Part shown: positions 1,056-22,074 of the stretch, in pieces
Layout of the letters: each line of letters starts with the position of its first letter
Numbering within the stretch: the stretch's first letter is position 1
NCBI RefSeq assembly: GCF_014646255.1
Contig: NZ_BMNC01000004.1
Location: 178,480 to 202,479, forward strand
Reading direction: 5' to 3'
DNA length: 24,000 bases
DNA from: Lentzea pudingi
GTDB lineage: Bacteria > Actinomycetota > Actinomycetes > Mycobacteriales > Pseudonocardiaceae
The notes under the pieces: model-generated
Told to the model about the DNA's origin: nothing
Databases searched by the model: none
The model's input: only the letters and a program-made list of their open reading frames with translations
Made by a program: the position numbers and the translations under genes

Positions 1056-1178
1056 GAGGAGACGCGGAGGATCGTAACCGATGCCCGCCGCGTTGTTCAG
1101 GGGGTATGCCTTGTGTTGCGGTGCAAAGCGTTTCATGTGGACTGACGTGCGTCTTCTGGGTGGAAGGCAAGTCCTGTC

Positions 1179-1208
1179 TTGAAATCAGCGTTCCGGCATG
1201 CCTAGAGT
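1179..1208 (+). promoter_or_regulatory. Candidate housekeeping-type promoter: -35 TTGAAA (1179-1184), 18-nt spacer, -10 TAGAGT (1203-1208)
   Basis: Matches the actinobacterial TTGACN-N17/18-TANNNT pattern. It is oriented toward the LacI-family gene, and operator O2 begins 9 nt downstream of the -10 element. Confidence 0.35.
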
Positions 1209-1216
1209 GGTAGCGC

Positions 1217-1232
1217 GGGAAAACATTTTCCC
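1217..1232. promoter_or_regulatory. GGGAAAACATTTTCCC, second operator-like inverted repeat (O2)
   Basis: It has the same 7-bp arms as O1 (GGGAAAA / TTTTCCC); only the central dinucleotide differs (CA versus GC). It sits over the predicted transcription start of the candidate promoter at 1179-1208. Confidence 0.45.
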
Positions 1233-1345
1233 AAGCCTTGCCGACGACTCGCCGCCGGCCGGTGCCGGGCGGTGCCGGACGGCCGGGAACCACTGGTCCG
1301 GGGTGGACTGGGTGGGCGGCGGCTTGGTCCGTAGGATCAGCGGGC

Positions 1346-2398
1346 GTGGAGGGAAACGCGACGCTGTTCGACGTGGCACGGGTGGCAGGGGTGTCCCTGG
1401 CGACCGCGTCGAGGGCGATCAACGGCAGTGCTCGGACGGTGGGCGCGGAACTGCGCGAGAAGGTGCTGCGGGCCGCGCAGGAGTTGGACTACTCCCCGAA
1501 CGTGGCTGCCAGGGCGATGAAGCGCGGCCACGCCGAGGTGGTCGGCATGATCGTCCCCGACATCGCGGACCCCTACTTCTCGGGCATCGCCTCGGGGGTC
1601 ATGAAGGCCGCCGACGAGCAGGGCCTGATGGTGTCGATCGCCAGCACGCGCCGGCAGAGCAGCCGGGAAGCCGAGTACCTGGAGGGATTCCGCCGCCAGC
1701 GCAACCGCGCGGTCATCCTCGCGGGCAGCCGCACCACCAGCCGTGCCGAGGTCGACCGCCTGCGCGCCGAGGTCGACCGCTTCGAGGCGCAGGGCGGCAG
1801 GGTCGCGGTGGTGAGCCAGCGCAAGCTCCCGGTGGACACCGTGGTCGTGGAGAACCGCCAGGGCGCCAGGGCGCTGGCGGCGGACCTCGCCGGACTGGGC
1901 TACCGCGACTTCGTCGTGCTCGCCGGCCCCCGCGACCTGCTCACCGCCAAGGACCGGCTCGACGGTTTCCGGACGGGTCTCGCCGACCACCGCGTCGAAC
2001 TGGCCAGGGAGAGGGTCGTCAACGGCGAGTTCAGCAGGGACGGTGGCTTCCAGGCGATGGAGCAGGTCCTGGACGAGCGCGACGACATCGACTGCGTGTT
2101 CGCCGTCAACGACGTCATGGCGCTCGGGGCGATCGCGGCCATCCGTTCGCGGGGACTCGACGTACCCCGCCACCTGTCGATCGCGGGCTTCGGCGACATC
2201 TCGACGCTGCGGGACATGTCGCCGCGGCTGACGACCGTGCGGGTGGACCTCGAGAAGTTGGGGCGCCTGGCGCTGGAGATGATCTTGTCGGACGGTGGGG
2301 GCGTGCCGCGCACCCACCGGGAGAAGTGCCAGGTGGTGCGGGGGTCCAGCACCCCTGGCCGGAAACCCGCCGGCCGCGGGGCGGCAGCGAGGAAATGA
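1346..2398 (+). CDS. LacI/GalR-family transcriptional repressor
   Basis: Track ORF 1238..2398. The N-terminal HTH is 'ATLFDVARVAGVSLATASRAINGSARTVGAELREKVLRAAQELDYSPNVAARAMK', followed by a periplasmic-binding-protein-like sugar-binding core (VGMIVPDIADPYF..., FAVNDVMALGA). I prefer the in-frame GTG at 1346 (350 aa, normal family length); the 36 codons upstream are G/P/W/T-rich and not HTH-like. Confidence 0.9.
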   Translation: MEGNATLFDVARVAGVSLATASRAINGSARTVGAELREKVLRAAQELDYSPNVAARAMKRGHAEVVGMIVPDIADPYFSGIASGVMKAADEQGLMVSIASTRRQSSREAEYLEGFRRQRNRAVILAGSRTTSRAEVDRLRAEVDRFEAQGGRVAVVSQRKLPVDTVVVENRQGARALAADLAGLGYRDFVVLAGPRDLLTAKDRLDGFRTGLADHRVELARERVVNGEFSRDGGFQAMEQVLDERDDIDCVFAVNDVMALGAIAAIRSRGLDVPRHLSIAGFGDISTLRDMSPRLTTVRVDLEKLGRLALEMILSDGGGVPRTHREKCQVVRGSSTPGRKPAGRGAAARK

Positions 2399-2442
2399 CC
2401 GCAACGCGGTCGCGGGCCGAGGCGGTAGATGCGCAAGGCCCT

Positions 2443-2997
2443 TCACGCTCCTCGTCGAACTCCCATCTCCTCCATGGTCAGCCTCAACGCCTTCAGCCCG
2501 AAGTGGACCCTGCTGCGCAGGGTCGCCTGTGGCACGCCCAGTTCGGCGGCCACCTCGCGGTACGACCTGTCGCGCAGGTAGGTCTCGACCAGGGCGGTCC
2601 GCTGGTCCGAGCTGATCCGCAGCAGCGCGACCTGCACCAGGCGCCGGTCGATCGCGGTGCCCGCGATGTCGGTGCTGACCTCACCGGCCGCGGCGGCGGC
2701 TCTCATCGCGGCGGCGATCCGCTTGTCGTGGCGCAGTCGCGAGCGGACCTCGTCGATCACCACGTTGCGAGCGATGGTGAACAGCCACACGCGAACGGTG
2801 GCCAACTCGGGCTTGAAGCCGCCCGCGGACTTCCACGCCCGCAGGAACACCTCCTGCACCGCCTCTTCCGCCGCGCAGCCGTCACCCAGCTGCCGCACTG
2901 CGAAGCGGTGCAACTCCGGCGCGTGCAAGGCGTAGACCTCCCGGACCCTGAAGCTGCCGTGCAGGTCGGGGCTCTGTCGACTGCCGATGTCCGCCAT
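2443..2997 (-). CDS. ECF (group 4) RNA polymerase sigma-70 family factor
   Basis: 184 aa. Region 2 reads 'HAPELHRFAVRQLGDGCAAEEAVQEVFLRAWKSAGGF...RVWLFTIARNVVIDEVR'. Region 4 reads 'SDQRTALVETYLRDRSYREVAAELGVPQATLRSRVHFGLKALR'. The SD GGGGAG lies 4 nt before the ATG. Confidence 0.9.
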   Translation of the reverse strand: MADIGSRQSPDLHGSFRVREVYALHAPELHRFAVRQLGDGCAAEEAVQEVFLRAWKSAGGFKPELATVRVWLFTIARNVVIDEVRSRLRHDKRIAAAMRAAAAAGEVSTDIAGTAIDRRLVQVALLRISSDQRTALVETYLRDRSYREVAAELGVPQATLRSRVHFGLKALRLTMEEMGVRRGA

Positions 2998-3065
2998 GAG
3001 CTCCCCGTCGCCGTTCCTGCGGGGGATTCGAGACCGCGGACATGACGGATGGGTGATTTCGTCCT

Positions 3066-3131: not shown

Positions 3132-3983
3132 ATGCGTATTGCTCGCACGACTGCGCTCGTGGGCGCGGCAGCACTGCTCATGACCGCACTCGGCGCCACG
3201 CCCGCGTCGGCGTCGGCCGACCAGCCCCGTGTCCACCTGCTGACTTCCGACGGAGTCCTGAGCACCAGGAGCTGGTCGTCCCCGTTGCTGTCCCAGCAGC
3301 GCGTCCGCGTCAGCGGGCTCAAAGCCCGCGACCGGCTGATCGGCATGGACGTGCGGCCCGCGACCCGAGCGTTGTACGCGATCGCTGCCTCTGGCCAGCT
3401 CTACGTCCTCGACCCGCGCACGGGCAAAGCGACCGCGGTGGGCGCGCCCGCCGCGATCACGGGAACGGCCGTGGGCTTCGACTTCAACCCGGCCGTGGAC
3501 CGCATCCGCCTGGTCGCGACCAGCGGCCAGAACCTGCGGCTGCACCCGGACACCGGGGCGGTGGCGGCCGTCGACACACCACTCGCCTATGCCCAGGGAG
3601 ACCGCGCCGAGGGCAGCACTCCGCAGGTTTCCGGCGCCGGCTACACCAACAGCGTCGCCGGTGCGACGTCCACCACCCTCTACGACCTGGACAGCCGCAG
3701 GGACACCCTCGTCACGCAGGGCACGGTCGCGGGCGCGACCCCGGTCGTGTCCCCGAACACCGGACAGCTGTTCACCGTCGGCGGCCTCGGCCTCGACATC
3801 GCCAAGACCAACGGCTTCGACATCGCCACCGTGGGCGGACGCGACTCCGCCATGGCCGCGGTGCAACCCGACTTCTCGTTGCTGGGCGGATCGCTCCTGG
3901 TGAAGGTCAGCCTGACCACCGGCCGCGCCTCGGTCGTCGGCCTCGCCGGAGGTGACGTCGTAGGACTCGCGTTCGCCCGCTGA
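3132..3983 (+). CDS. Secreted DUF4394 domain protein
   Basis: 283 aa. The signal peptide is MRIARTTALVGAAALLMTALGATPASASA. The body contains 'LIGMDVRPATRALYAIAASGQLYVLDPRTGKAT', 'GFDFNPAVDRIRLVATSGQNLRLHPDTG', 'AGYTNSVAGATSTTLYDLDSRRDTLVTQ' and 'NGFDI', the repeated motifs I associate with DUF4394. The SD GGGAGAA precedes the ATG. Confidence 0.8.
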   Translation: MRIARTTALVGAAALLMTALGATPASASADQPRVHLLTSDGVLSTRSWSSPLLSQQRVRVSGLKARDRLIGMDVRPATRALYAIAASGQLYVLDPRTGKATAVGAPAAITGTAVGFDFNPAVDRIRLVATSGQNLRLHPDTGAVAAVDTPLAYAQGDRAEGSTPQVSGAGYTNSVAGATSTTLYDLDSRRDTLVTQGTVAGATPVVSPNTGQLFTVGGLGLDIAKTNGFDIATVGGRDSAMAAVQPDFSLLGGSLLVKVSLTTGRASVVGLAGGDVVGLAFAR

Positions 3984-4132: not shown

Positions 4133-4618
4133 GTGAGGACCGTGCTCCCGAACGACCAGCCCGGCGACGAACCGGGACTCCTCTCGCAGGAGCTGGACCT
4201 GGACCGTCCGAGACCGTCGATCGCGGCGGTCAGGGACTGGACCAGGGACGGGCTGAGCGGCCTGGACGAAGACGTCCTGGAGGACGTCGTGCTGGTGATC
4301 AACGAGCTGGTGAGCAACGCGTTCGACCACGGCCTGCCCCCGCGCCGGATCAGGCTGCACCGGTCCAGCGATCTCCGCCTGGTCCGGGTGGAGGTCGACG
4401 ACGCCTCGCTCGACACGCCGGTCGTGGGCGCCTCACGCCTCAACGCCGACCGCGGCCGGGGATTGATCATCGTCGATCGGCTGGTCAAGGGGTGGGGGGT
4501 CGTGGACCAGCCGGCCGGCAAGACCGTCTGGGCGGAGGTCGACGCGGTGCTTCCAGTAGGTCGCGACGAGCCTTCTCGACACGATCACCCGACGCTGACC
4601 GCCCGCAGCGTGTCATAG
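4133..4618 (+). CDS. RsbW/SpoIIAB-like anti-sigma factor / serine kinase (HATPase_c only)
   Basis: 161 aa. The N-box is 'VVLVINELVSNAFDHG', followed by 'RLVRVEVDDAS' and the G-box-like 'DRGRGLIIVDRLVKGWGV...GKTVWAEV'. An in-frame alternative GTG is at 4142. Confidence 0.8.
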   Translation: MRTVLPNDQPGDEPGLLSQELDLDRPRPSIAAVRDWTRDGLSGLDEDVLEDVVLVINELVSNAFDHGLPPRRIRLHRSSDLRLVRVEVDDASLDTPVVGASRLNADRGRGLIIVDRLVKGWGVVDQPAGKTVWAEVDAVLPVGRDEPSRHDHPTLTARSVS

Positions 4619-4748
4619 AGCGGACGCGGGTCGGCTGGGCCGTGGCCGCGCGGCGGGCAGTCCGGCAGCGGTCGAGCTCGGCGTTGATCATGTGCGGCCG
4701 CGTGGCAGCTCTTACGCTCGGAACGCGTCCTGTCGCACTGAGGATCGA

Positions 4749-5162
4749 ATGTCGTTGCCGAGCAGAAGGCCAGGAACTCCGATGGACCCCACAGTTCGGG
4801 CCGCGTCGGTCACCGTCAGCGCAGCCGAGCACTCCGACGTGCTGGTCGTGCGGCTGTCCGGCGACCTGGACGCCGAGTCCGCCGTCGCGGCGCAGGCCGC
4901 GCTGGTCGAGATGACCGACGGGCTGATCCCGCCCGCACGGGTCGTCCTCGACCTGACAGCGGTGGACCTGCTGTCAGCAGCCGGTGTCCGCGTTCTGCAA
5001 GGCCTCGTCGGCACGTTCGCCGAGCGGAACGTCGGTGTTCGTCTCGCGGCGGACCCGGACAGCCTCGTGCACTCGATGGTGAGGCTTGCTCTGCAGGACC
5101 ACGGAATCGGTGTTCACACCAGCGTGTCAGACGCCCTCCGTGCCAGGTGTTCAGGCAGGTGA
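4749..5162 (+). CDS. STAS-domain anti-sigma-factor antagonist (RsbV/SpoIIAA-like)
   Basis: Track ORF 4692..5162. The STAS core is 'VLVVRLSGDLDAESAVAAQAAL...RVVLDLTAVDLLSAAGVRVLQGL...VGVRLAADPDSLVHSMVRLALQD'. ATG 4749 is preceded by GAGGA, and ATG 4782 is preceded by AGGAA; either could be the start. Confidence 0.8.
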   Translation: MSLPSRRPGTPMDPTVRAASVTVSAAEHSDVLVVRLSGDLDAESAVAAQAALVEMTDGLIPPARVVLDLTAVDLLSAAGVRVLQGLVGTFAERNVGVRLAADPDSLVHSMVRLALQDHGIGVHTSVSDALRARCSGR

Positions 5163-7115
5163 CCACGGCAGGTCGACGAGATCGAGGACGAAGGCCGCCG
5201 GACTGCCGCGGTGGGCGATCAACACCGGTTCGTGGTGATGTGCGGCGAGTTGCCCGGCGAGGTCGTAGAGGATCCGCACGCCCGCGCTGAGCAGGTGGGA
5301 GACCTCGGACAGGTCGACGGTCAGGGGCAGCACGCCGCCTCGGGAGGCGAGGAACAGGTGGCGTGCGAACTCGGTCGAGGTCATCGCGTCCACTGGGCCG
5401 TGCACGCGTACGACCGCCGTGTCCGGGCCTTCCACCGTCTCGACGCGGAACGCCGGGGAGGGCTCCTCGTGCGAGGCGTCGGGGCTCGTGCCGGAGGCGA
5501 GCATCGGGGGTTGGCGGATGCGGTGCCGGAAGGTCACCGTGGTGCCGCGCGCGCCTGGTGGCTCGCCGGCGCGTTGCGGGGGATGGGTGACGGTGACCTC
5601 GTCGACGAGTTGCTGGCACAGCATCAGGCCACGTCCTCTGTCGGTGCTGCCGGGGTCCGCCGCACGCCAGCGGCCCTCGTCGCCGACGCGGAGTTCGCAG
5701 ATGCCGTCGGGTGTCAGCTGTGCGGTGATCAGGACGGTGCCCTGCCGGCCTGGCGGGTAGGCGTGTTCGGCCGTGTTGGTGGTCGCTTCGCCGACGGCGA
5801 ACTCGAGGACCTCCCGGTCTCGTCGGCCCGCGTTGACGCCGGCCAGCCAGTCCCGGATCTCGCGCCGGGCGAGAGCCAGGTTGGAGAGCGTGCTGGCGAA
5901 CCGCACCGACAGCGGTGGCACCGGCTCGGCCAGGCGCTGGACCGCGAGGGTGGTGACGTCGTCGCGGTAGCCGGTGCGGGTGAGCAGGTCGATGGTGAGC
6001 CGGCAGACTCGTTCGACCGCCTGATCAGTCTCGGTGTGGGGCAGCACGCGGTTCATCGCGGCGTCCGCAGCCAGCGTGGCGAGTTCGACAGCGGCTTCGC
6101 CCGGTGTGCGGCCGGGCCGTTCGACCAAGCCGTCTGAGTACAGCAGGACCAGGTCGTCGGGGGCGAGGCGAGCAGTGGACAGAGCGGGGGAGCGGCCCAC
6201 ACCGAGTGGCCCGCTCGTCGGACCGCTCAGGAACTCGGTGGTGCCGTCCGCTCGGACCACGAGCGGCGGTGGGTGGCCGCACGAGCTGTAGGACAACTCT
6301 CCTGTCCGCGGATCGAGCTTGACCACCGCGAGTGTGGCGGCGTGCAGGGCCCGGTGACCCGCGGCGAAGGAATTGGTCTGCTCGAGCGCGCTGAGCAGGT
6401 CGTCGTTGGTGTGCAACAGGAACGCCAGGACCGTGCGCAGCTGGCCCATCGCCGCCGACGCGGTGACGCCGCTTCCCGCGACGTCACCCACCGCCAGGAC
6501 GACGGCGCCGTCCTTCAGCGGGATGGCGTCGAACCAGTCACCTCCGGCGGTGGGGCCGTGCTCGCCGGCCAGGTACCTCGCGGCGATCCTGGCCTGCGGC
6601 AGCACCGGCAGCGATGTCGGCAACAACGCGGCTTGCAGCTCCGCGACCCCACGGCCGCGCCGATCCCGGACCTGCTCGGTGACGTCGACGGCGTACGCCG
6701 AAACGCCGCGAACCGCCCCGTCGTCGTGGAAGTACGGCTCCATCACGAGATCGACGAAGGCCTCCACCGGCCTACCGGCGGCACGATCGACCTGGACACC
6801 CCACTCACCGACCGTGTGCGGCTCTCCTGTGACGTAGACCCGGTCGATCCCGGCCTGGACTCGTCGGCCCTCCAACCCCGGCAGCAGCTCACGGGCCGCC
6901 AGGCCCACGGGTTCGGAGACCCCGGCGAATCTGCGGAAGGCTTCGTTCGCCGCGACCAGCCGCTGCTCAGGCCCTTCCCAGGCGGCGAGCGCCGGCGACG
7001 ACTCGTCGAACCGGTCACGCACGACGTGCGGATCGCCGACGCGCCGCAAGTGCGTGGCGTCGTCGCGCCGCGATTCCGGTCCCATATCCGCTAGACGTAC
7101 CCAGCCTCGCGTCAC
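5151..7115 (-). CDS. Multidomain partner-switching protein: PAS - PP2C/SpoIIE phosphatase - RsbW-like HATPase - STAS (Rv1364c-type architecture)
   Basis: 654 aa. The N-terminus is PAS-like (ALAAWEGPEQRLVAANEAFRRFAG...). PP2C motifs are 'GGDWFDAIPL...LAVGDVAGSGVTASAAMGQLR', 'LLYSDGLVE' and 'YRDDVTTLAVQRL'. The kinase N-box is 'EFAVGEATTNTAEHAY', followed by 'DRGRGLMLCQQLVDEV'. The C-terminal STAS is 'AVVRVHGPVDAMTSTEFARHL...LTVDLSEVSHLLSAGVRILYDL'. An alternative start is the ATG at 7085. Confidence 0.9.
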   Translation of the reverse strand: MTRGWVRLADMGPESRRDDATHLRRVGDPHVVRDRFDESSPALAAWEGPEQRLVAANEAFRRFAGVSEPVGLAARELLPGLEGRRVQAGIDRVYVTGEPHTVGEWGVQVDRAAGRPVEAFVDLVMEPYFHDDGAVRGVSAYAVDVTEQVRDRRGRGVAELQAALLPTSLPVLPQARIAARYLAGEHGPTAGGDWFDAIPLKDGAVVLAVGDVAGSGVTASAAMGQLRTVLAFLLHTNDDLLSALEQTNSFAAGHRALHAATLAVVKLDPRTGELSYSSCGHPPPLVVRADGTTEFLSGPTSGPLGVGRSPALSTARLAPDDLVLLYSDGLVERPGRTPGEAAVELATLAADAAMNRVLPHTETDQAVERVCRLTIDLLTRTGYRDDVTTLAVQRLAEPVPPLSVRFASTLSNLALARREIRDWLAGVNAGRRDREVLEFAVGEATTNTAEHAYPPGRQGTVLITAQLTPDGICELRVGDEGRWRAADPGSTDRGRGLMLCQQLVDEVTVTHPPQRAGEPPGARGTTVTFRHRIRQPPMLASGTSPDASHEEPSPAFRVETVEGPDTAVVRVHGPVDAMTSTEFARHLFLASRGGVLPLTVDLSEVSHLLSAGVRILYDLAGQLAAHHHEPVLIAHRGSPAAFVLDLVDLPWSPA

Positions 7116-7124
7116 CTATGCGTG

Positions 7125-8699
7125 TCAGTCGCTGCCCTGATGGTCAGGGCGCGCGGACGCGGCACGATCGACGCGCTCGTACACCGCCAGCACCTCCTGG
7201 CCGAGCTTGTCACGCGCGTAGCGCGCCATCACACGGTCACGCGCGGCGATGCCCAACTCCTCCCTCAGCGTCTGGTCGGCGAGCAACCGCCGGAGCGTCC
7301 GAGCCAGAACACGAGGTTCACGTGGCGGTACGTGCAGGCCGGTGATGTTGTGCACGACGATGTCCTCCAGCGCGCCCACCGCGGTGGCGACCACCGGGAC
7401 ACCACACGCCATGGCCTGCAGAGCCACCAGGCCATACGGTTCGGCGGTGGGTACGCAGACCACGACGTCGGCGGAACGCAACAAGACGGGCATGCGGGCA
7501 CGGGGGACTTCGCCGGCGAACGTGACCCGGTCCCGGACCCCCAGGTCGTGTGCGAGCTCGCGCAGCTCCTGAGCGACCGTGCTGGACCTCGGGTTGTCTC
7601 CCGCGATCACCAGCTCGACGGTCTCGAGCGCGGGCAGGCACGCGATGATGTCCGCGAAATCGGTGCCGCGAAAGAATTTCCCGACGGTGACGAGACGTTG
7701 CAGCGCTCCCCGGGCGGCGACCGGGCCGTCCGGGTGGAAGTGCTCCACGTCGACTCCGGACGGGATCATGGAGACCTGGATCCGGCGCACGCCCTGTCGC
7801 CACATCTCGGAGGCTTCCGGTGAACTGGCCGCCACGACCCATGAGGCCTTGCGCGCGACGAGCCTTTCGACGTCGGCGCGCTGCTGGATCTCCTGCGCAC
7901 TGACCGCGTTGTAGGAGTGCACGACAGGGATCCAGGTCCGGCGAGAACCGATGGCGGCCGCCAGTCCGGACGTCCAGTGGTGCGTGTGCGCGATGTCCGG
8001 CGGACGCGACCTCCAGCGTTGTGCGAGGAACTGCGCGAACTCTTCGAGGTGAGGCACGACCTCGTCCTCGGTGAGCCGGCGGGCAGGCCCTGCCGGCACG
8101 TGCACCACCTCGTACCCGTCCTCGGTGCGGACGCGATCCGGAGCTCGGGGATCGTCCCGCCGGGTGTAGACGACCACTTCGTGCCCGAGGCCGCGCAGGG
8201 CTGCCGCCAGCTGTGCGACGTGCGTCCCCTGCCCGAGATCGTCAGCGAGCGGGCTGGCCTGCTCGGACACCAGGGCGATCCGCATCGACGCCCGTCCGGC
8301 CCTGCGCGCCACGCGGATCGCGTCCGACAGGGTTTCGTGTCGTGAGAAGTTTTCAGCCAACCCGGCGACCTGAAGCGTTCGCGTGATGTGCGCTCCAGGC
8401 GTGACGAGATGAAGCGGGATGTCACGGCTCCGCGCGTGCTGTTGGATTTCCATGAGCGCGTTGATGCCGGACGAACTGAAGTAGGACACCTGGCCGAGGT
8501 CGACGACGACGGCGTGGGGACACGTCTCCACCTGAGCCGCCAGCTCCGCGACCAGCGCGGGAGCCGTGCTCAGGTCGACCTCTCCCGCAACGGAAACGAT
8601 CGATATCCCGCCATCGAGTGTCGTGCCCACCGACCAATCCTCGGGCACGTCGAAAAGAGGGTCCCGCATCTCGATCGCTCCCTTGTGCCGGGACGTCAT
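7125..8699 (-). CDS. STAS domain fused to a GT4-family (GT-B, MshA/PimA-like) glycosyltransferase
   Basis: 524 aa. The STAS domain (about aa 20-125) reads 'ISIVSVAGEVDLSTAPALVAEL...AVVVDLGQVSYFSSSGINALMEI...IPLHLVTPGAHITRTLQVAGL'. The GT4 part starts at M139 with 'MRIALVSEQASPLADDLGQGTHVAQLAAALRGLGHEV', followed by 'THHWTSGL', 'VTFAGEV', 'ADVVVCVPTAEPYGLVALQAMACGVPVVATAVGALEDIV'. An alternative start is the ATG at 8669, preceded by AAGGGAG. Confidence 0.9.
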   Translation of the reverse strand: MTSRHKGAIEMRDPLFDVPEDWSVGTTLDGGISIVSVAGEVDLSTAPALVAELAAQVETCPHAVVVDLGQVSYFSSSGINALMEIQQHARSRDIPLHLVTPGAHITRTLQVAGLAENFSRHETLSDAIRVARRAGRASMRIALVSEQASPLADDLGQGTHVAQLAAALRGLGHEVVVYTRRDDPRAPDRVRTEDGYEVVHVPAGPARRLTEDEVVPHLEEFAQFLAQRWRSRPPDIAHTHHWTSGLAAAIGSRRTWIPVVHSYNAVSAQEIQQRADVERLVARKASWVVAASSPEASEMWRQGVRRIQVSMIPSGVDVEHFHPDGPVAARGALQRLVTVGKFFRGTDFADIIACLPALETVELVIAGDNPRSSTVAQELRELAHDLGVRDRVTFAGEVPRARMPVLLRSADVVVCVPTAEPYGLVALQAMACGVPVVATAVGALEDIVVHNITGLHVPPREPRVLARTLRRLLADQTLREELGIAARDRVMARYARDKLGQEVLAVYERVDRAASARPDHQGSD

Positions 8700-8784
8700 C
8701 GAGCTGAATGCTTAACCCGAGAAGCCGCTGAACGCTACCGACCGTAGCCCCCTCGCAACGCTGCCCACAAGCCGAGAAGTGTGA

Positions 8785-8810
8785 GTTTGACTTTCGCTGA
8801 GAACGGGTAT
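8785..8810 (+). promoter_or_regulatory. SigB/SigF-type promoter: GTTTGA (8785-8790) - N14 - GGGTAT (8805-8810)
   Basis: Read directly. It matches the general-stress sigma consensus (Bacillus SigB GTTTaa-N12-15-GGGtAt; Streptomyces SigB GNNTN14-16GGGTAC/T; mycobacterial SigF GTTT...GGGTAT). It lies about 75 nt upstream of the STAS gene start at 8886 and is oriented toward the STAS and RsbW-like pair. Confidence 0.5.
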
Positions 8811-8840
8811 GTCCACCGACGACCGATATGCTCAGGAAAT

Positions 8841-8854
8841 CTGATCGCGATCAG
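8841..8854. promoter_or_regulatory. Perfect 14-bp palindrome CTGATCGCGATCAG in the STAS gene leader
   Basis: Read directly; it is self-complementary. It lies between the SigB/F-type -10 element and the GTG at 8886. Confidence 0.3.
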
Positions 8855-8885
8855 TTGGCCATTCGGCAGGGAAGAGGCCTTCGGT

Positions 8886-9251
8886 GTGACTGAGCCAGCC
8901 CCGAGCGTGCAGCCGATTTCCGTCGGGATCAGCCAAGTCGGCGACCAGGTGTCGGTGGCGTCCATCGCCGGTGAGATCGACATGCTGACCGAAGCGGTGG
9001 TCCGGGACGCGGTCCGCTGCCAGCTCGCGGCAAAACCGCGCTTGCTCGTGCTGGACCTGACCGAGGTCGGGTTCATGGCGTCGTCCGGGCTCGACCTGAT
9101 CCTGCAGATCCAAGCTCGCGCGCTTGAACAGGGCACTCGCCTCTCCGTGGTCGCGAACCAGGGTTCCGTGCGCCGCCTTCTGAGTGTGAGCGGCGTCGAC
9201 ACCGCCGTGGACCTGCATCACGATCTCGGCTCGGCTCTGCGGTCGTGCTGA
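8886..9251 (+). CDS. STAS-domain anti-sigma-factor antagonist (RsbV/SpoIIAA-like)
   Basis: Track ORF 8781..9251, but its first 35 codons cover the promoter. The GTG at 8886 is preceded by GGAAGAGG. The STAS core is 'VSVASIAGEIDMLTEAVVRDAV...LLVLDLTEVGFMASSGLDLILQI...RLSVVANQGSVRRLLSVSGV', with a canonical phosphorylatable Ser in the 'ASSG' motif. Confidence 0.85.
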   Translation: MTEPAPSVQPISVGISQVGDQVSVASIAGEIDMLTEAVVRDAVRCQLAAKPRLLVLDLTEVGFMASSGLDLILQIQARALEQGTRLSVVANQGSVRRLLSVSGVDTAVDLHHDLGSALRSC

Positions 9252-9392
9252 GTGGCCGGTCAGAATGTGGATCTCGTGATGAGAACTCAACCGAAAACGG
9301 GTTTGGACTCGCTTTGCAGGTGATTGTGGCGAGAACTGGTCACCGTCGTGGTGAGATGCGGTGGATCAGCGAACGTGGAGGCAAGATCGCTC

Positions 9393-9851
9393 GTGACCAT
9401 CGCCGATGAGGACGCCGCGTCATTGGTCGTCGACCTTCCGGTCGAGCGCGAATCGCTGGTGCCCGATGTGCGCCGCGAGGTCGATGCGGCATTGCGCGAC
9501 CTGGGAGAGGATCACCGTTACGACGTGCTCCTCGTCGTGACCGAACTGGTGAGCAACGTCCTGGACCACACGGCCGGCCCCGGCCGGCTTCGAGTTCTTC
9601 GCGGCGACGCTCCCTGCGAGGTCTCGGTGGAAGTCGACGACACGTCGTCCGCGCGGCCGCGTCATGGCCGATCGAGGCTGGGCCCGCACCGCGGCAAGGG
9701 GATGGTGGTCGTGGGCAACGTCTCGAACGACTGGGGGACGAGACCGGGACCGGAGAGCGGTAAGACCGTCTTCGCGGTGATCCGATGTGGCGACGGTGCG
9801 ACGTCGGCCGCCCCATGCGAGCCCTCGGACGGCGTCCACTACGGAGTCTGA
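9393..9851 (+). CDS. RsbW/SpoIIAB-like anti-sigma factor / serine kinase (HATPase_c only)
   Basis: Track ORF 9324..9851 (TTG start). The N-box is 'VLLVVTELVSNVLDHT', followed by 'EVSVEVDDTS' and 'HRGKGMVVVGNVSNDWG...GKTVFAVI'. I prefer the GTG at 9393, with GGAGG 11 nt upstream; GTG 9375 or TTG 9324 are possible. Confidence 0.8.
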   Translation: MTIADEDAASLVVDLPVERESLVPDVRREVDAALRDLGEDHRYDVLLVVTELVSNVLDHTAGPGRLRVLRGDAPCEVSVEVDDTSSARPRHGRSRLGPHRGKGMVVVGNVSNDWGTRPGPESGKTVFAVIRCGDGATSAAPCEPSDGVHYGV

Positions 9852-10089: not shown

Positions 10090-11139
10090 TCACAACCACC
10101 GGTTGCGCTTGAACATCCGGTAGAGCACCAGGCACGCGATGAGGATCATCGACAGGACTAGTGGATAGCCGTATCTCCAGCGCAGCTCCGGCATGTGGTC
10201 GAAGTTCATGCCGTAGACGCCGACGACCATCGTGGGCACCGCGATGATCGCGACCCAGGAGGAGATCTTGCGCATGTCGTTGTTCTGCTGCAACGACACC
10301 TTCGCCAGCGTCGCGTTCACGAGGGTGGTGAGCAGTTCGTCGAAACTGACAAGTCGCTCCACCACGATGGTCAGGTGGTCGTTGACGTTGCGGAAGTACG
10401 AGTGCAGCATCTCGGGAACCAGCGGGCCGCAGTGGTCCTCGCTGAGCTTGCGCAGCGGGCCGGTCAGCGGCATGACCGCGCGGCGCAGTTCGGTGAGTTC
10501 CCGTTTGAACAGGTACATCTGTTCCACGCCGATCTCGCTGTGCGGAGCGAACACCGCGGTCTCGATCACGTCGACGTCGCCTTCGAACGCCTCGACGACG
10601 GCGAGGTAGTCGTCGACGACGCGGTCGGCGATGGCGTGCAGCACCACCGCCGGTCCTGCGGCCAGCCGGGCGGGCTGGTCCTCCAGCTCTCTGCGGAGCT
10701 CGCCGAGCGGAGAGTGGTCGCCGTGCCGGACGGTGATGACGTAGTCGCGGCCGAGGAACACCATGATCTCGCCCGATTCGACGATCTCGTTGGCCGTGGT
10801 GGGGGACTCGTGTTCGACGTAGCGCACCGTCTTGAACACGGTGAACAGGTTGTCCGCGTAGAGCTCCAGCTTGGGCCGCTGGTGAGCGTGCACCGCGTCT
10901 TCCACGGCCAGCTCGTGCAGTCCGAACGCTTCGGTCACGTCCCGGATCTGCTCGGCGTCGGGAGCGAAGAGGCCGATCCAGACGAAGCCGGTTCCGCGAT
11001 CGCGCACCTCGGCGACCGCCTCGGCCGGTGACCGGTCGCCCGGCACGCGAGCGCCGTCGACGTAGATGCCGCAGGCCACCACCGGGTCGCGCTCTGCGGG
11101 CAACAGCCCACCTGGACTCACGCCTGCGGAAGTCGTCAT
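10090..11139 (-). CDS. corA: CorA-family Mg2+/Co2+ transporter
   Basis: Track ORF 10090..11169. The C-terminus reads 'ISSWVAIIAVPTMVVGVYGMNFDHMPELRWRYGYPLVLSMILIACLVLYRMFKRNRWL', with the signature YGMN motif between two TM helices. The cytoplasmic N-domain has typical length. ATG 11139 (MTTSAG...) is preceded by GGGAAG. Confidence 0.92.
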   Translation of the reverse strand: MTTSAGVSPGGLLPAERDPVVACGIYVDGARVPGDRSPAEAVAEVRDRGTGFVWIGLFAPDAEQIRDVTEAFGLHELAVEDAVHAHQRPKLELYADNLFTVFKTVRYVEHESPTTANEIVESGEIMVFLGRDYVITVRHGDHSPLGELRRELEDQPARLAAGPAVVLHAIADRVVDDYLAVVEAFEGDVDVIETAVFAPHSEIGVEQMYLFKRELTELRRAVMPLTGPLRKLSEDHCGPLVPEMLHSYFRNVNDHLTIVVERLVSFDELLTTLVNATLAKVSLQQNNDMRKISSWVAIIAVPTMVVGVYGMNFDHMPELRWRYGYPLVLSMILIACLVLYRMFKRNRWL

Positions 11140-11215
11140 AGCGGCGATCTTCCCTCGACAGAAGACCAATCGAACGCCGTCTGGCTATTCTTACGCGATC
11201 CTTACGCCGCGACGA

Positions 11216-13488
11216 TTACGGCAGTTGAACGCCGACGACGCAGGTGTCGTCGTCGGTGTTGGACTCGCCGTGTGCGAGCAGGTGGTCGAGCAGCTCGTCC
11301 AGGTTCGACGCCGGCGTTCGCGCTGCCTCGCACAGGTGGTCCAGGCAGTCGTCGAGCGGAACGTCCCTGCGCTCGACCAGGCCGTCGGTGTACAACAGCA
11401 GGGTGTCACCCGGTTCCAGCTGCAGCTGACCCTCCTCATAGGACGGTTCGGCGAGGGCGCCGAGCAGCACACCGCGCAGCATCGGCAGCAGTTCGGCGTC
11501 GCCGTCGCGGATCAGCACCGGCGGCAGGTGGCCCGCGCGGGCCCAGCGCAGGACGCGGGTGTGCGGATCGTAGAGGCCGCAGATCGCGGTCGCGATGATG
11601 TTGTCGCTGAGGTGGTGCGCCACGAGGTTGAGCCACGTGAGCAGTTGCGCGGGGCCGGCGCCGGTGGCGGCGAGCCCGCGCAGTGCGTTGCGCAGCACCA
11701 CCATGCCAGTCGCGCCCTTGATGCCGTGGCCGGTGATGTCACCGACCGACACGAGGATCTGCTTGGTGGGCAGGACGACGGCGTCGTACCAGTCGCCGCC
11801 GACGAGCTCCTCCTGCGCGGCGGGCCGGTACCGCACCGCCACGCGCAGTCCGAACGCGTCGATCGTGGGGTGTGTCGGCGGCATGATCACTTGCTGGAGC
11901 TGCAACGTGAGCGTGTTGCGCTCCAGGGATTCCTGCTCGGTGATCGCGAGCTGGTCCTGCGTCGCGGACAGCGCGACCTCGGTCCAGTGCTGGGCGGACA
12001 CGTCCTGGTACGCCCCGCGGACGGCGAGCAGTTCGCCCTGTGAGTCGAGCACGGGCTCGGCGATCACCCGCACGTGCCTGGTGACGCCGTCCGGGCGTTG
12101 CAGGCGGAACGCCGTCGACGCCTGCTGCCGGTCCCGCAGGACGTTGTGCACGAACCCGTTGAGCGAGAGGACGTCGTCGGGGTGGGCGTGTGCCGCGATC
12201 TCCGCCAGGGGCACCGGATCGGTGCCGGGTGCGAGCCCGTACAGGGCGTACAACTGGCTGTTCCACATGATCCTGCCGCTGTGACGTTCCTCCTCGAAAC
12301 CACCGACACGGCCGAGTCGCTGCGCGTGTTGCAACAGGTTCGCCAGACGGGCCGTCTCGTCCTGCGCCCTCCACACGACCAGGACCAGCGCACCGTGCCT
12401 GGTGATGCTCACACTGGCCGCGACCGTGAGCGGCACCTCGTCGATGAGCGCCGCGAGGGTCATGCGCTCGGCCCGGAACGATTCGCCGGTGGCGTGCACG
12501 TGCTCGATCTTGTCGAACAGGTTTCCTTCGGCCGAGGCCAGCGGGTAGGCCTCCAGCAGTGACTTGCCCGCGATCGCGGAGCGCGGCCTGCCGGCGAGGT
12601 CGACGAACCCGCGGTTCACGTGGTGCACCCGGAAGTCGGCGATCGTGCCGTCGGGCGAGATCTCCGGTCCGAGCACGAGAGCGGGGTCGAGCAGCCCGTC
12701 GGCGAGGTCGACGAGTTCGGACGGCGCCCGCGCGAGATTCGGTGCCGCGGTGCTGTCGAGGGTGGCGGCGCACAGCTGCGCCAGCGCTTCCACCTGTTTG
12801 TGCACGCTCAGGGACTGGGGCGCGAGCGGAGCAGGCCAGCAGATCTCCAGCACGCCGGCGATCCGCCCGCCGGTCCCGGCGGGGACGGCGACGCGGCCGG
12901 GCAGGCCCGGGCCGATCGACGGCAGGCCTGACTCGTCGAGGTCGACGATCCACACGGCGTCCCGCTCGACCAGCGCGCGGCGGGCGGGAGTCGACACACC
13001 GGGCGGGACGTAGTGCCAGCGGCTCGCCTCGCCCGGCTCGAACCCGGCGTGCCCGGCGAGCGTCAGCGACGCGTCGGAACCCGCTGACCAGATCGCCACC
13101 GCGCTCGCGCCCAGGGGTGCGAGCGCGTGGGTGAACAGGGACTGCGCGACGGCCTGCGTGTCATCGGCGCCCAACGCGCCGCTCTCCGCGGTCCGCAGCC
13201 GGACCGCGGTCGTTCTGCTCGGCTCGTCGGGCACCGCGGTGAGGGTGTCGCCGGACACCTCGTTGATGATCTCCACGGCGAGCGTGAGCTGTGTGATGCC
13301 TGCCTGCTCGGCGAGCAGCGCGAGCTGTTCGGCGGCCTGTGCCGGGCCGCAGCGCAGCCGTTCGACGAGCACGCCTTTGGCGAGTTCCACCAGCGCCCGG
13401 CCGTCCGCGGTGGCCCGCACCTCGTCCATCTCCCTGCTGAGCCGGTCGATCGTGCTCACGAGCCGGTTCACGGCAGGCTGACCGGCGG

Positions 13489-13492
<4 letters not shown>
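11216..13492 (-). CDS. ANTAR - GAF - PAS - PAS - PP2C/SpoIIE phosphatase multidomain protein
   Basis: Track ORF 11216..13519. The N-terminal ANTAR domain is 'VSTIDRLSREMDEVRATADGRALVELAKGVLVERLRCGPAQAAEQLALLAEQAGITQLTLAVEIINEV'. It is followed by a GAF-like region and two PAS-like regions ('LVLGPEISPDGTIADFRVHHVNRGFVDLAG', 'GRIMWNSQLYALYGL...FRLQRPDGVTRHVRVIAEPV'). The C-terminal PP2C reads 'VGGDWYDAVVL...VSVGDITGHGIKGATGMV', 'LLLYTDGLVE', 'DDDTCVVGVQL'. The preferred GTG at 13492 overlaps the upstream TGA (GTGA). Confidence 0.9.
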
Positions 13493-18033
<4,541 letters not shown>

Positions 18034-18164
18034 CCGCACTTCCTCCACTGCCTGGCTGGAACGACGTGGAGGCAGACCTGTGTCTTCAAGTGCACCTCGT
18101 TCGACCATGAGATTACTGGACCCGGGGTGCGTTCCGGACGGCTGGACGACGTCCGGCTCCGTGC

Positions 18165-18953
18165 TCAGGACCGGGTCACGGTGTCGAGCAGGTTCTTCGC
18201 GACGTCACGGAGTTTCGTGTTCTCGTGCTGCGACTGCTCCACGAGCATCTCGAAGGCTTCGTCGGCGTCGCAGGAGTGCACGGCCATCAGGACGCCCTTC
18301 GCCTGGTCGATGACGGCCCGCGACACCAGGGCCTGTTCCAGGTTGGCGATGTGGTCGCTGGTGCGCTTCCAGCGGTGGGCGCTGGCGATCGTGGTCGACG
18401 CCGCCGTCGTGAAGAGCCGCATGAGCCCCTCGTCGAACGGGTCGAAGGCCGCGGCCGTGTAGCTGTAGACGTTGAGCGACCCGAGGTGCTTCTCCTCGCC
18501 GGGCTTCGAAGCCGGCAGCAGAACCGGCACCGACAGGTAGGCCCGGATGCCGTGCTCGCTCGCCGACGCCTCGAACTCCGGCCACTCGTCGAGGTGTTCA
18601 CCGACAACCGCGCGCACGGCCTGCAGAGTACGTGCGGACTCCAGGCACGGACCTCGATCGGCGCTGTACTGCTTCTCGTCGACCTCGTTGAAACGGGCGT
18701 TCGTGGAGGCCGCGGTCCGCGGTTGCGCCAGATCCACCACCGACACCGTCACCGCGTCGGCGTCGGGAATCGCTCTGGCCGCGGTGTCCGCGAGTCTCTG
18801 CAGAGCGGTGTTGAGCGGCTCCTCGCCGGTGAAGGAGTCGCGGAGCACCGTCAGCGCCTCGGTGGTCTCGTCCAGGCGAGCGAGGGCGTCAGGGCGCCCG
18901 CCGTCGCTCGACCCGCTCGAGGAGCGGTCGAACGCGCGCGTTTCATCGGCCAT
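18165..18953 (-). CDS. GAF + ANTAR domain RNA-binding regulator
   Basis: 262 aa. The GAF-like core is 'ALQRLADTAARAIPDADAVTVSVVD...YLSVPVLL...LGSLNVYS'. The C-terminal ANTAR is 'ANLEQALVSRAVIDQAKGVLMAVHSCDADEAFEMLVEQSQHENTKLRDVAKNLLD'. The SD GAAGAGGA lies 7 nt upstream of the ATG. Confidence 0.9.
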   Translation of the reverse strand: MADETRAFDRSSSGSSDGGRPDALARLDETTEALTVLRDSFTGEEPLNTALQRLADTAARAIPDADAVTVSVVDLAQPRTAASTNARFNEVDEKQYSADRGPCLESARTLQAVRAVVGEHLDEWPEFEASASEHGIRAYLSVPVLLPASKPGEEKHLGSLNVYSYTAAAFDPFDEGLMRLFTTAASTTIASAHRWKRTSDHIANLEQALVSRAVIDQAKGVLMAVHSCDADEAFEMLVEQSQHENTKLRDVAKNLLDTVTRS

Positions 18954-19314: not shown

Positions 19315-22074
19315 TCAAAGATCCTGCCCGGTCCGTTCGGGCAGGGCGTCGAGTTGCTTCCGGACGCGCTCCGCCTCCTCGGTCCTGCCTTGCTGCCGGT
19401 AGATCTCCAGCGCCTCCTGCCACACCGCACGCGCCTGGTCGTGCTGGCCGAGCGCGGCGTGCGGCGCGCCCAGTCCGGCCAGGGCCTCCGCGATCCCGTA
19501 GTCGTAGATGAGTTCTCGTTGCAGCGCCAGGGAATGCCGGTAGTGGTCGACGGCCAGCGCGTGGTCGCCGGCGAGGTGGGCGATGTAGCCGAGGCTGTCC
19601 AGCACCCCTGCCTCACCGGACGGGTCGTCGTGCTCGCGGTAGAGCTCCAGAGCGGCCAGGCAGTGCTCACGCGCCACGTCGTGCTGACCGAGCCGGGCGG
19701 CGAACCAGCCGACGCCGTTGAGCGATCCGGCCTCCCAGACCCGGTTGCCGAGCGCGCGGCAGAGCTCCAGGGAACGGACCGAGTGCTCCAAGGCGCGCGC
19801 GTCGTCTCCTTGTTGCTCGTACGCCCTGGCCAGGGCTGTGTGGGTGTGGGCCTGCGCGGTCTGGTCGTGTTGCCGCTCGGCCAGGACGAGAGCGCGCAGG
19901 AGGTGGTGGAGGGCCTGCCGGTGCCGGCCGAGGTCGGCGTTGGCGAGTCCCAGCTGGCGGTGGCCGAGCACGGTGGCGGCCACGTCGGGTCCCTGCTCGC
20001 TCGCGACCAGCCCGGTCTCCCAGGCACGGATCTGGGCGTGGTGGTGTCCGCGGAGCTGGTGGAAGGTGGACAGCGACCACGCCAGCTGCCAGACGGCGCG
20101 GCGCCACCCCAGTGCCGCGGTGGCGTGCTGGGCCGCCAGCAGACAGGCGTGCTCCGCGTCGAACCACGCCATGGCCGCCGCTGTGTCGGGCAACGGCTGA
20201 GGGGTGTGGCTCGGTCCGTCGAGCTCGATGTCCACGCGGTGCGGATACAGGAGGCGATCGGCGGCATGGGCGGTGTGCAGGTAAAAGCCGATCACCCGGC
20301 GCAGCGCCGACTCCCGCGCCTCCCCGTCCAAGGTGCGGTGCGCGACGTCCGCGGCGTAGTGGCGGATCAAGTCGTGCATCCCGTAACGGCCTTCGGCGCC
20401 CTGGCTGATGAGCGACGCCTGTTCGAGACCGCGCAGCGCGGTCCTGGCCTTGGCCTGGGACAGACCGGTCAACGCCGCGGCGCCGGGCAGGCCGATGCCC
20501 GGTCCCGGCGCGATGGCGAGCAGTCCGAGCACCTCGGCCTGCTCACCGGTCAGCGCGGTGTAGGACAACGACAGCACGGCGGGCAGGCTCGCGACGGGGT
20601 CTCCCTCGTCGAGCACGTCCAGCAGGCTTTCGCGCAACTCGGCCGTGAGCGCGGACAGCGACGTCCCGGGACAGGTGTGCACGCGTCCCGCGATGATGCT
20701 CAACGCGAGCGGGTAGCCGCCGCACAGCTCCACCAGTTCATCGGCGGCGTCGTGCTCCGCTTCGACCTGCGCGGCTCCGAGCCTCGCGACGAGCAGGTCC
20801 CGGGACGCGGTGTCGCTGAGGGCGTCGAGGACCAGGTGCCGGGCGCCGTGCCCCGTGGCCAGTCCGGGCATCCGGTTGCGGCTGGTCACCAGCACCGCGC
20901 ACGACGTGCCGCCCGGCAGCAGCGGGGTGACGTGGGCGGTGTCGGCGGCGTTGTCGAGGACGAAGAGCATCCGCCTGTCCGCGACGAGGCTGCGGAACAA
21001 CGCGCTCTGGGTGTGCGGGTCGGCCGGGATGCGGCCGGGCTCGATCCCGAGGGCGTCGAGGAACCCGCGTACGGCAGCGGCAGGGGACAACGCGCCGCCG
21101 TCGGGGCTGAAGCCGCGCAGGTCGACGTGCAGCTGGCCGTCGGGGAACCGATGGGCGTGCTGGTGCGCCCAGTGCAGAGCGAGCCAGGACTTGCCGATAC
21201 CGCCGGAGCCGACGACGGCCATGATGGAGGAGCGGTCCAGGAGGGAGTCCAGGGCGGTCAGCTCGTCCTGACGGCCGAGGAACGGCGCGGGCGTCATCGG
21301 CAGCTGCCGGGGAGTCGCGTTCCGGGACTCGCCGGCGGGAACGTGATCGGCGGTCAGCAACTGCTGGTGCAGGTCCTGCAACGCGGCGCCGGGCTCGGTG
21401 GCGAGCTCCTCGCGCAGGCGCGCCCGGAACCTCCGGTAGAGGTCCAGCGCGTCGCTGGTGCGGCCGGCCTGCCGCAGCGCCAGCATGTGCTGACCCGTCA
21501 CCCGCTCGTCCAACGGCAGCTGTGCGCCGCGTGCGGACAGCACGCCCACCAGCTGAGCACCTCTTCCGCGACGCAGCAGGGCGTCGGCCAGGTCGTGCTC
21601 GGCCTCCAGCCGCTCCTGCGACAGCCTGTCGCGTTCGGCTTCCGCCCACTCGCCGTTCACGCCGGTCAGCGGCTGGCCCTTCCACAGCGCCAGCGCCTCG
21701 TTCCACAGGCTCACCGCCTCGCCGTCCTCATCGCGCGCACGGGCGCACAGTGCGCGGAACTGCTGCAGGTCCGTCACCGGTTCGGTGTCGGCGAGCAGGG
21801 CGTAGCCGCCGGAACGGGACGCGATTCTCACACCGGTCCCCGCCTCGGCCAGCGCTCGGCGCAGCCGGGAGATGTAGCTGTGCAGGACCGTCCGTGACCG
21901 GTGCTCCGCGTCCGCTCCGGAAACCCGCACGACCAGACGGTCCACCTGCACGACTCGGCCCCAGTCGAGGGCGAGCGCGGCCAGTACGCACCGTTGCTTG
22001 GGCGTGCCCAGATCGACCGGTCGCCCGTCGACCTCGGCACCGACCTCGCCCAGCAGGCGAACCACCACTGCCAC
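19315..22074 (-). CDS. AfsR/SARP-family regulator (OmpR-type wHTH + BTAD + NB-ARC ATPase + TPR)
   Basis: 919 aa. The N-terminus 'VVRLLGEVGAEVDGRPVDLGTPKQRCVLAALAL...' is a SARP DNA-binding domain. The BTAD reads 'LWKGQPLTG...ERLEAEHDLADALLRRG...LDERVTGQHMLALRQAGRTSDALDLYRRFRARLREELATEPGAALQDLHQQLL'. The Walker A is 'MAVVGSGGIGKSWLA', followed by 'MLFVLDNA', 'VLVTSR' and 'CGGYPLAL'. The C-terminus holds TPR repeats. The GTG start has GGGGAG 7 nt upstream. Confidence 0.92.
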   Translation of the reverse strand: MAVVVRLLGEVGAEVDGRPVDLGTPKQRCVLAALALDWGRVVQVDRLVVRVSGADAEHRSRTVLHSYISRLRRALAEAGTGVRIASRSGGYALLADTEPVTDLQQFRALCARARDEDGEAVSLWNEALALWKGQPLTGVNGEWAEAERDRLSQERLEAEHDLADALLRRGRGAQLVGVLSARGAQLPLDERVTGQHMLALRQAGRTSDALDLYRRFRARLREELATEPGAALQDLHQQLLTADHVPAGESRNATPRQLPMTPAPFLGRQDELTALDSLLDRSSIMAVVGSGGIGKSWLALHWAHQHAHRFPDGQLHVDLRGFSPDGGALSPAAAVRGFLDALGIEPGRIPADPHTQSALFRSLVADRRMLFVLDNAADTAHVTPLLPGGTSCAVLVTSRNRMPGLATGHGARHLVLDALSDTASRDLLVARLGAAQVEAEHDAADELVELCGGYPLALSIIAGRVHTCPGTSLSALTAELRESLLDVLDEGDPVASLPAVLSLSYTALTGEQAEVLGLLAIAPGPGIGLPGAAALTGLSQAKARTALRGLEQASLISQGAEGRYGMHDLIRHYAADVAHRTLDGEARESALRRVIGFYLHTAHAADRLLYPHRVDIELDGPSHTPQPLPDTAAAMAWFDAEHACLLAAQHATAALGWRRAVWQLAWSLSTFHQLRGHHHAQIRAWETGLVASEQGPDVAATVLGHRQLGLANADLGRHRQALHHLLRALVLAERQHDQTAQAHTHTALARAYEQQGDDARALEHSVRSLELCRALGNRVWEAGSLNGVGWFAARLGQHDVAREHCLAALELYREHDDPSGEAGVLDSLGYIAHLAGDHALAVDHYRHSLALQRELIYDYGIAEALAGLGAPHAALGQHDQARAVWQEALEIYRQQGRTEEAERVRKQLDALPERTGQDL

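Follow-up and report, generated by a model that had tools for sequence, protein, structure and literature searches.

An N-terminal ANTAR fold with an apparently lost RNA-recognition signature on a kinase-paired, putative partner-switching phosphatase of Lentzea pudingi

ANTAR domains are usually the C-terminal output of signalling proteins, a generalisation that the initial annotation of the locus described here had made and with which we agree. In the Bacillus cereus group, de Been et al. (2010) reportedly described a system, RsbK-RsbY, in which a hybrid kinase and a receiver-PP2C phosphatase control SigB. More generally, N-terminal sensor domains control PPM phosphatase dimers via a coiled-coil linker, a scheme put forward for RsbU, RsbP, RsbZ, OsaC and Rv1364c (PMC12143880). 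We have analysed a 24,000-nucleotide stretch of the Lentzea pudingi genome (NZ_BMNC01000004.1, positions 178,480-202,479; G+C about 70%), referred to as the window and numbered from its first base, which contains a phosphatase gene whose product opens with an ANTAR fold and continues with a GAF domain, two PAS domains and a SpoIIE/PP2C domain. We propose, with a probability of roughly 0.55, that this protein is a kinase-coupled, multi-sensor partner-switching phosphatase and that its ANTAR fold has taken on a new role in dimerisation or docking. The most informative fact about it, which the initial annotation missed, is its invariable pairing with an upstream poly-HAMP hybrid kinase.

The upstream kinase has seven HAMP and seven HAMP_2 matches in Pfam, together with a GAF domain, HisKA, HATPase, a receiver-like region and a canonical receiver; both the H-box (SHELRTPLN) and the receiver are intact. 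In a local tblastn census all 78 of the 78 testable loci, defined as those extending 4 kb or more upstream, have a kinase homologue immediately upstream on the same strand (the neighbour counts given below use 87 loci and a range of 10 kb), and a kinase is also upstream in all six of the loci inspected first; those in the printed Streptomyces loci are 74-76% identical to the kinase of the window. The kinase and phosphatase genes overlap by 4 nucleotides in the window, in a Nocardia locus (L003) and in a further locus (L006), and no terminator-like site was found between them. The phosphatase and the kinase form a fixed two-gene unit. Across the window and 81 related loci the dimerisation and histidine phosphotransfer (HisKA) segment of the kinase is near-invariant between genera (majority frequency 0.96) and the receiver-like region preceding the last receiver is its least conserved part (0.69). 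We considered whether the pair could have arisen by splitting of a receiver-ANTAR regulator and rejected this, as the last receiver of the kinase best matches PleD, DivK and hybrid kinases, with no ANTAR regulator in the top 60. Residual distance correlations, calculated domain by domain for kinase and phosphatase co-evolution, are all negative and mostly a method artefact; they are uninformative and were not used.

The phosphatase gene lies in an open reading frame at 11216..13519 on the reverse strand, with possible starts at GTG 13519, GTG 13492 and the ATG at codon 31. We favour GTG 13492 because the Lentzea proteins in an alignment of 21 orthologues begin 'MTTGQ…' at the same position, so that the gene coordinates of the initial annotation stand; this start is upstream of the ANTAR region and overlaps the TGA stop of the kinase gene as GTGA. 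Conservation begins N-terminal of the ANTAR core, at R10/L11. That the region is translated is shown by 77 related loci, in which differences fall at third, first and second codon positions 2555, 1362 and 969 times respectively and 1530 of the differing codons differ synonymously only. Profile searches of the kind proposed in the initial annotation, with residue ranges counted here from GTG 13519, match ANTAR (PF03861; residues 33-85 on model positions 2-54 of 54, with E=9.4e-9 and 35.4 bits where the cut-off is 27.3), PAS_4 (residues 294-391, 33.4 bits), PAS_3 (residues 417-502, 37 bits) and SpoIIE (PF07228; residues 586-765, E=2.8e-47, 161.6 bits). The GAF domain has no Pfam match at E<=1 in the phosphatase itself, but it is matched in many orthologues (PF13185/PF01590), and the secondary structure that AlphaFold predicts for residues 91-248 fits a GAF domain. 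Pfam finds no Response_reg and no HATPase_c_2 in the phosphatase; its N-terminus is taken up by the ANTAR fold. The domain order read in the initial annotation is thus borne out, and the ANTAR motif strings that it quoted are present in the protein.

The SpoIIE/PP2C domain appears intact. The motifs GGDWYD (565-570), GD..GHG (584-590), TDG (702-704) and DDT (748-750) show no variation among 70 homologues, and on established knowledge of RsbU and SpoIIE we take all four to be metal-binding. Structurally the domain is nearest to the phosphatase domains of Rv1364c (30% identity) and RssB, both matched at E about 1e-12, and the protein is apparently an active PPM/PP2C serine phosphatase of the RsbU/SpoIIE type.

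Recognition of the N-terminal fold required a structural comparison, because a search of the PDB with the N-terminal sequence alone returned nothing relevant and one with a family profile of the N-terminus returned only EutV, at E=0.059. AlphaFold models the N-terminal 80 residues with a predicted local distance difference test score (pLDDT) of 85.6 as helices at 6-46, 50-64 and 68-79, and the nine best Foldseek matches of this model in the PDB are all ANTAR proteins (AmiR, EutV, PAL, Rv1626, NasR); against EutV (6wsh) the query-normalised template modelling score (TM-score) is 0.77 and the root-mean-square deviation is 1.3 Å. As judged from the model, the ANTAR fold at the N-terminus is genuine, as had been annotated, and by its structure the domain belongs to the ANTAR family. 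In the orthologue consensus, hydrophobic residues at 8, 11, 15, 18, 22, 25 and 29 have the 3-4 spacing of a heptad helix. The bundle is as well conserved as the catalytic domain: alignment columns have a majority frequency of 0.80 in the ANTAR bundle, 0.79 in PP2C and about 0.5 in linkers, and the bundle is 71% identical between Lentzea and other genera. The helical linker between PAS and PP2C is also among the best-conserved segments (0.87). These values indicate that the ANTAR domain is not decaying and that selection on it is about as strong as on the catalytic domain. The Pfam ANTAR scores of the family are 33-48 bits, compared with 59-78 bits for single canonical domains, of which the Lentzea protein reaches only about half.

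The ANTAR cores of the phosphatase family, EutV and canonical actinobacterial ANTARs, including that of a GAF-ANTAR protein encoded in the window, align without gaps, and their residue positions can therefore be compared directly. Three positions are kept: R32 (EutV R142, NasR R340), E36 (EutV E146) and K39 (EutV K149); of the RNA-recognition residues, R32 and K39 alone survive. Seven are replaced, with P50 in place of EutV E160, A54 in place of EutV Y164 and NasR W362 (usually Phe), A58 in place of EutV R168 and NasR R366, A61 in place of EutV S171, E62 in place of EutV M172 (Gln in most ANTARs), G65 in place of EutV R175 and NasR N373 (usually Asn), and T67 in place of EutV R177 (usually Lys). 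The replacements are consistent throughout the family, across four actinomycete orders, and the ANTAR segment has a net charge of -4. In the structure of EutV with RNA, the flipped-out G4 has Y164 stacked against it and the hexaloop is plugged by M172; E160A lowers the affinity 60-fold and Y164A 55-fold, M172 is essential, and an N173/R175/R177 triple mutant has a drastic effect (PMC8934654). In NasR the substitutions R340A, W362A, R366A and N373A each lose binding (PMC7496416). By alignment, then, the family carries natural equivalents of several loss-of-function substitutions of EutV and NasR. The pair R142 and E146, through which one ANTAR domain of the EutV dimer is hydrogen-bonded to the other (PMC8934654), is retained (R32 and E36), along with the heptad helix. 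An Rfam scan of the window gave no match at gathering or E<=1 thresholds, and a custom scan of the window for paired A1/G4 hexaloop hairpins found 0 compared with 1.5 expected. By the alignment the RNA-recognition signature has been lost, with the phosphatase ANTAR failing the functional signature of RNA-binding ANTARs. These replacements weaken the RNA binding suggested in the initial annotation, which is not supported for this family.

The architecture is common and already catalogued in databases, and spotting it is no discovery; the rarity that the initial annotation had implied does not hold. ANTAR and SpoIIE occur together in 118 of the 120 best matches (62-97% identical) in a collection of 5.8 billion proteins, from Lentzea, Saccharothrix, Nocardia, Streptomyces, Nonomuraea, Streptosporangium and others, where they are annotated as 'SpoIIE family protein phosphatase', 'antitermination regulator' or 'ANTAR domain-containing protein'. 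A scan with one genome per species finds a relative in at least 581 actinomycete genomes, and a profile of the N-terminal 80 residues matches 557 cluster representatives at E<=1e-3, nearly always within the first approximately 130 residues. A 2025 review shows the 11 most frequent ANTAR architectures out of 149 in Pfam, and SpoIIE is one of the domains named in the legend to that figure (PMC12591593). The few proteins with an ANTAR match far from the N-terminus (P0160, P0169, P0181), which we considered as natural kinase-ANTAR fusions, are frameshifted or miscalled fragments; P0160 opens with the kinase receiver tail 'MPGDREKSLASG' and then reads out of frame into the phosphatase. Such chimeric gene calls could pass for natural fusions.

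A sister group (P0260, P0243, P0251, P0268, P0266, P0197 and P0257) has an N-terminal ANTAR with the canonical signature RSRAVIEQAKG…EAF…SQ..N.KL..VA and Pfam ANTAR scores of 59-78 bits in single-domain members and about 100 bits in two-domain members. It includes a 615-residue ANTAR-PP2C protein (P0260; ANTAR 70 bits) and two proteins of 1085 and 938 residues that carry two ANTAR-GAF-PAS units in tandem. Judged by this signature, the sister group offers better candidates than the window protein for a true RNA-binding phosphatase, and the idea of the initial annotation may hold there.

In the arrangement that we favour, the coiled coil and ANTAR bundle would form a parallel dimerisation element, a protein-docking element, or both, and not an RNA-binding antiterminator; the loss of the RNA-binding residues makes dimerisation or kinase docking the more likely role. 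The likeliest docking partner would be the upstream hybrid kinase, for whose terminal receiver no phosphotransfer partner is known. Inputs from the kinase and from the GAF and PAS sensors of the phosphatase would pass via the helical linker between PAS and PP2C, switching the phosphatase dimer on or off, a mechanism that we carry over by analogy from RsbU and RsbP (PMC12143880). The phosphatase would then dephosphorylate STAS-domain anti-anti-sigma proteins, a STAS protein being its presumed substrate, and so feed a SigB-type partner-switching network. A more specific version, in which the RNA-blind ANTAR and coiled coil dock the phosphorylated terminal receiver of the adjacent kinase and thereby control the phosphatase in trans, we hold to be doubtful, although it is attractive because no histidine phosphotransfer (HPt) partners exist for the hybrid kinases of Streptomyces coelicolor, the cascades of which have been called unclear (PMC9739842). 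If it is correct, a 'split' receiver-ANTAR arrangement would wire a two-component kinase into partner switching without HPt or response regulator, and would explain the signalling target of the orphan poly-HAMP hybrid kinases of actinomycetes.

Several observations weigh against a repurposed, kinase-coupled ANTAR. Dimerisation is suggested by heptad spacing and by homology to EutV and AmiR, and the AlphaFold model is of a monomer; only gene adjacency points to the docking partner. The terminal receiver of the kinase resembles generic hybrid-kinase receivers such as PleD and DivK and not those of ANTAR regulators, and there is no natural kinase-ANTAR fusion among the matches of the N-terminal profile. 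STAS, anti-sigma or sigma genes adjoin the pair in only about 9-16 of 87 loci, and the literature on ANTAR plus SpoIIE/PP2C yielded no functional study of any family member. The basic residues R32, K39, R45 and R47 remain, and so conserved a domain could still bind nucleic acid via another surface.

This last point bears on the view that the N-terminal ANTAR still binds RNA, either with RNA as an input to the phosphatase or with two outputs, antitermination or translational control alongside STAS dephosphorylation. The Pfam match above threshold, the true ANTAR fold, the very high conservation of the bundle and the retention of R32 (equivalent to the essential R340 of NasR) and K39 all speak for it, and the canonical signature of the sister group, including its PP2C fusion, makes RNA binding by an N-terminal ANTAR ancestrally plausible. 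However, all four orders have replacements at the aromatic stacker, at the Met/Gln plug, at the Asn and at the basic positions in the loop between helices 2 and 3, single changes of the equivalent kind in EutV and NasR remove or greatly lower binding, the segment is acidic overall, and the scans of the window gave nothing resembling an ANTAR target RNA; we regard continued RNA binding as unlikely. It seems still less probable that the RNA-blind ANTAR heterodimerises with canonical ANTAR regulators such as the neighbouring GAF-ANTAR protein, titrating or recruiting them and so linking antitermination to the phosphatase. The retained heptads and R/E dimer-contact pair would permit this, and a canonical ANTAR gene is nearby in the window as well as in a Saccharothrix locus (L005) and the Nocardia locus, but of the 87 loci just 5 have a GAF-ANTAR homologue and 1 has a PAS-ANTAR homologue, whereas the kinase is never missing. 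Since there are several ANTAR genes in actinomycete genomes, chance proximity is likely. We give least credence to the ANTAR fold being an inert cap or an evolutionary leftover, with regulation via GAF, PAS and kinase only: this would account for the loss of the RNA-binding residues and for the disordered linker that separates the ANTAR from the remainder of the protein, but it sits poorly with a bundle conserved to the degree noted above, with the large number of codons that differ synonymously only, and with retention in so many species.

The surroundings of the gene pair (Table 1) are an unusually dense island of partner-switching components, with four STAS domains and three HATPase_c_2 domains in the window and two pairs of RsbW-like and STAS genes within 9 kb. 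In the pair offered as candidate substrate, the STAS protein (8781..9251) scores 49 bits and contains the motif FMASSGL, and the HATPase_c_2 match of its partner (9324..9851) scores 26.6 bits, just under the cut-off of 27.4. The PAS-SpoIIE-HATPase_c_2-STAS fusion shares its all-in-one architecture with Mycobacterium tuberculosis Rv1364c. The fusion of STAS to a GT4 glycosyltransferase suggests a partner-switching type of input to a sugar transferase, and a GT4 gene is also near the gene pair in Saccharothrix (L005, 15726..16946). Among the 87 loci a SigB-like sigma factor is found in 16, a MEDS-HATPase in 14, a STAS gene in about 10 and a receiver-PP2C gene in 7, and in some genera a SigB-like sigma factor or a STAS and MEDS-HATPase pair flanks the kinase and phosphatase genes. 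The GAF-ANTAR protein of the window keeps the canonical signature RAVIDQAKG…EAF…SQ..NTKLRDVA, and one apparent operon thus holds both a canonical and an RNA-blind ANTAR; given the locus counts it is local context and no conserved partner. The CorA-type channel gene adjoins the phosphatase gene in 1 of 87 loci, that of the window; PP2C enzymes need Mn2+ or Mg2+, and the adjacency may be incidental. Several long open reading frames at 46..3045 have no Pfam match.

Table 1. Features of the window, with residues of the phosphatase numbered from GTG 13492
Feature	Position	Strand	Basis and remarks
ANTAR-GAF-PAS-PAS-PP2C phosphatase gene	11216..13492	-	Open reading frame list, orthologue alignment, Pfam; 758 aa; stop codon 11216-11218
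N-terminal heptad (coiled-coil) helix and ANTAR three-helix bundle, residues 6-79	13256..13477	-	Pfam, AlphaFold, Foldseek
Pfam ANTAR core	13265..13423	-	PF03861 match
GAF domain, residues 91-248	12749..13222	-	Orthologue Pfam matches, AlphaFold; follows disordered linker 80-93
PAS-A, residues 258-393	12314..12721	-	PAS_4/PAS matches, AlphaFold, structural matches to LOV-PAS proteins
PAS-B, residues 396-497	12002..12307	-	PAS_3/PAS_9 matches, AlphaFold
PAS-B-to-PP2C helical linker, residues 501-536	11885..11992	-	AlphaFold helices 501-514 and 519-536; candidate coiled-coil signal transmitter
SpoIIE/PP2C (PPM) phosphatase domain, residues 544-756	11225..11863	-	PF07228, motifs, structural matches; all metal-binding motifs
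Soluble hybrid histidine kinase, partner gene	13489..18108	-	Pfam; 1539 aa; stop overlaps phosphatase start (GTGA)
Canonical GAF-ANTAR protein	18165..18953	-	ANTAR 76.3 bits and GAF; 262 aa; 56 nt upstream of kinase gene
CorA-type Mg2+/Co2+ channel gene	10090..11169	-	46 nt after phosphatase gene, same strand
STAS protein and RsbW-like HATPase_c_2 protein	8781..9851	+	Pfam; candidate substrate pair
STAS-GT4 glycosyltransferase fusion	7125..8699	-	Pfam (Glyco_transf_4 and Glycos_transf_1); 524 aa
PAS-SpoIIE-HATPase_c_2-STAS fusion	5151..7115	-	Pfam; 654 aa
Second pair, RsbW-like (4133..4618) and STAS (4692..5162)	4133..5162	+	Pfam
DUF4394 protein	3132..3983	+	
AfsR-like regulator (Trans_reg_C, BTAD, NB-ARC, TPR)	19315..22074	-	
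LuxR-family regulator	22963..23829	-	

Overall, the protein is a variant, already known to databases, of a partner-switching phosphatase; its ANTAR fold is putatively repurposed and its kinase partner obligate. Annotation as an 'antitermination regulator' or 'ANTAR domain-containing' protein can mislead, since this widespread family is without the RNA-binding residues and should therefore be excluded from counts of actinomycete ANTAR regulators and from searches for their RNA targets. For hybrid histidine kinases, the downstream signalling of which has been called unclear in Streptomyces, the fixed gene pair supplies a concrete candidate output, and the phosphatase would extend the known N-terminal domains controlling PPM phosphatases by an ANTAR-fold module.

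Three candidates for a described relative were set aside. The 'ANTAR protein SSDG_04087' of Streptomyces pristinaespiralis, which has a bald phenotype, is PdtaR-p, a receiver-ANTAR regulator of another family; the PsmA/SCO4009 pseudokinase is a different hybrid kinase without the HAMP array; and the orthology of SCO7327 as the Streptomyces counterpart could not be verified, leaving it as a lead only (SCO7325 is homologous to RsbV and SCO7328 to RsbW).

Compared with the canonical ANTAR regulators (EutV, AmiR, NasR, Rv1626/PdtaR and GAF-ANTAR proteins), the Lentzea domain has the same coiled-coil helix and three-helix bundle, R/E dimer contact and full-length Pfam match, but it is N-terminal, fused to an enzyme, scores half as highly, and has the RNA signature (aromatic, S-Q/M, N, K/R) replaced. 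With the PPM phosphatases of the RsbU, RsbP, RsbZ and Rv1364c type it shares PAS/GAF sensors joined to PP2C by a helical linker; however, the N-terminal domains discussed for that class are PAS, receiver, GAF, HAMP and RsbU-N, with ANTAR not among them (PMC12143880), and no equivalent of the RsbT or RsbQ partners is known for the Lentzea phosphatase. The gene pair as a whole is like OsaA/OsaC of S. coelicolor (SCO5748/SCO5747), in which a very large cytosolic multi-HAMP hybrid kinase adjoins a GAF/PAS/PP2C regulator that modulates SigB (PMC9739842, PMC10117811, PMC12143880), although OsaC has a SigB-binding, RsbW-like kinase domain at its N-terminus where the Lentzea protein has an ANTAR fold, and the osa genes are reported not to be transcriptionally coupled whereas the Lentzea genes overlap. 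It is also like RsbK-RsbY, where a PP2C phosphatase expected to act on a STAS anti-anti-sigma factor has as its neighbour a hybrid kinase containing HAMP, GAF, HisKA, HATPase and receiver domains, but RsbY takes the phosphoryl group on its own N-terminal receiver, the Lentzea phosphatase is receiver-less and starts ANTAR-GAF-PAS-PAS, and the Lentzea kinase is soluble with a long poly-HAMP array. The kinase-phosphatase pair is thus most like RsbK-RsbY or OsaA-OsaC, yet departs from each in one defining feature.

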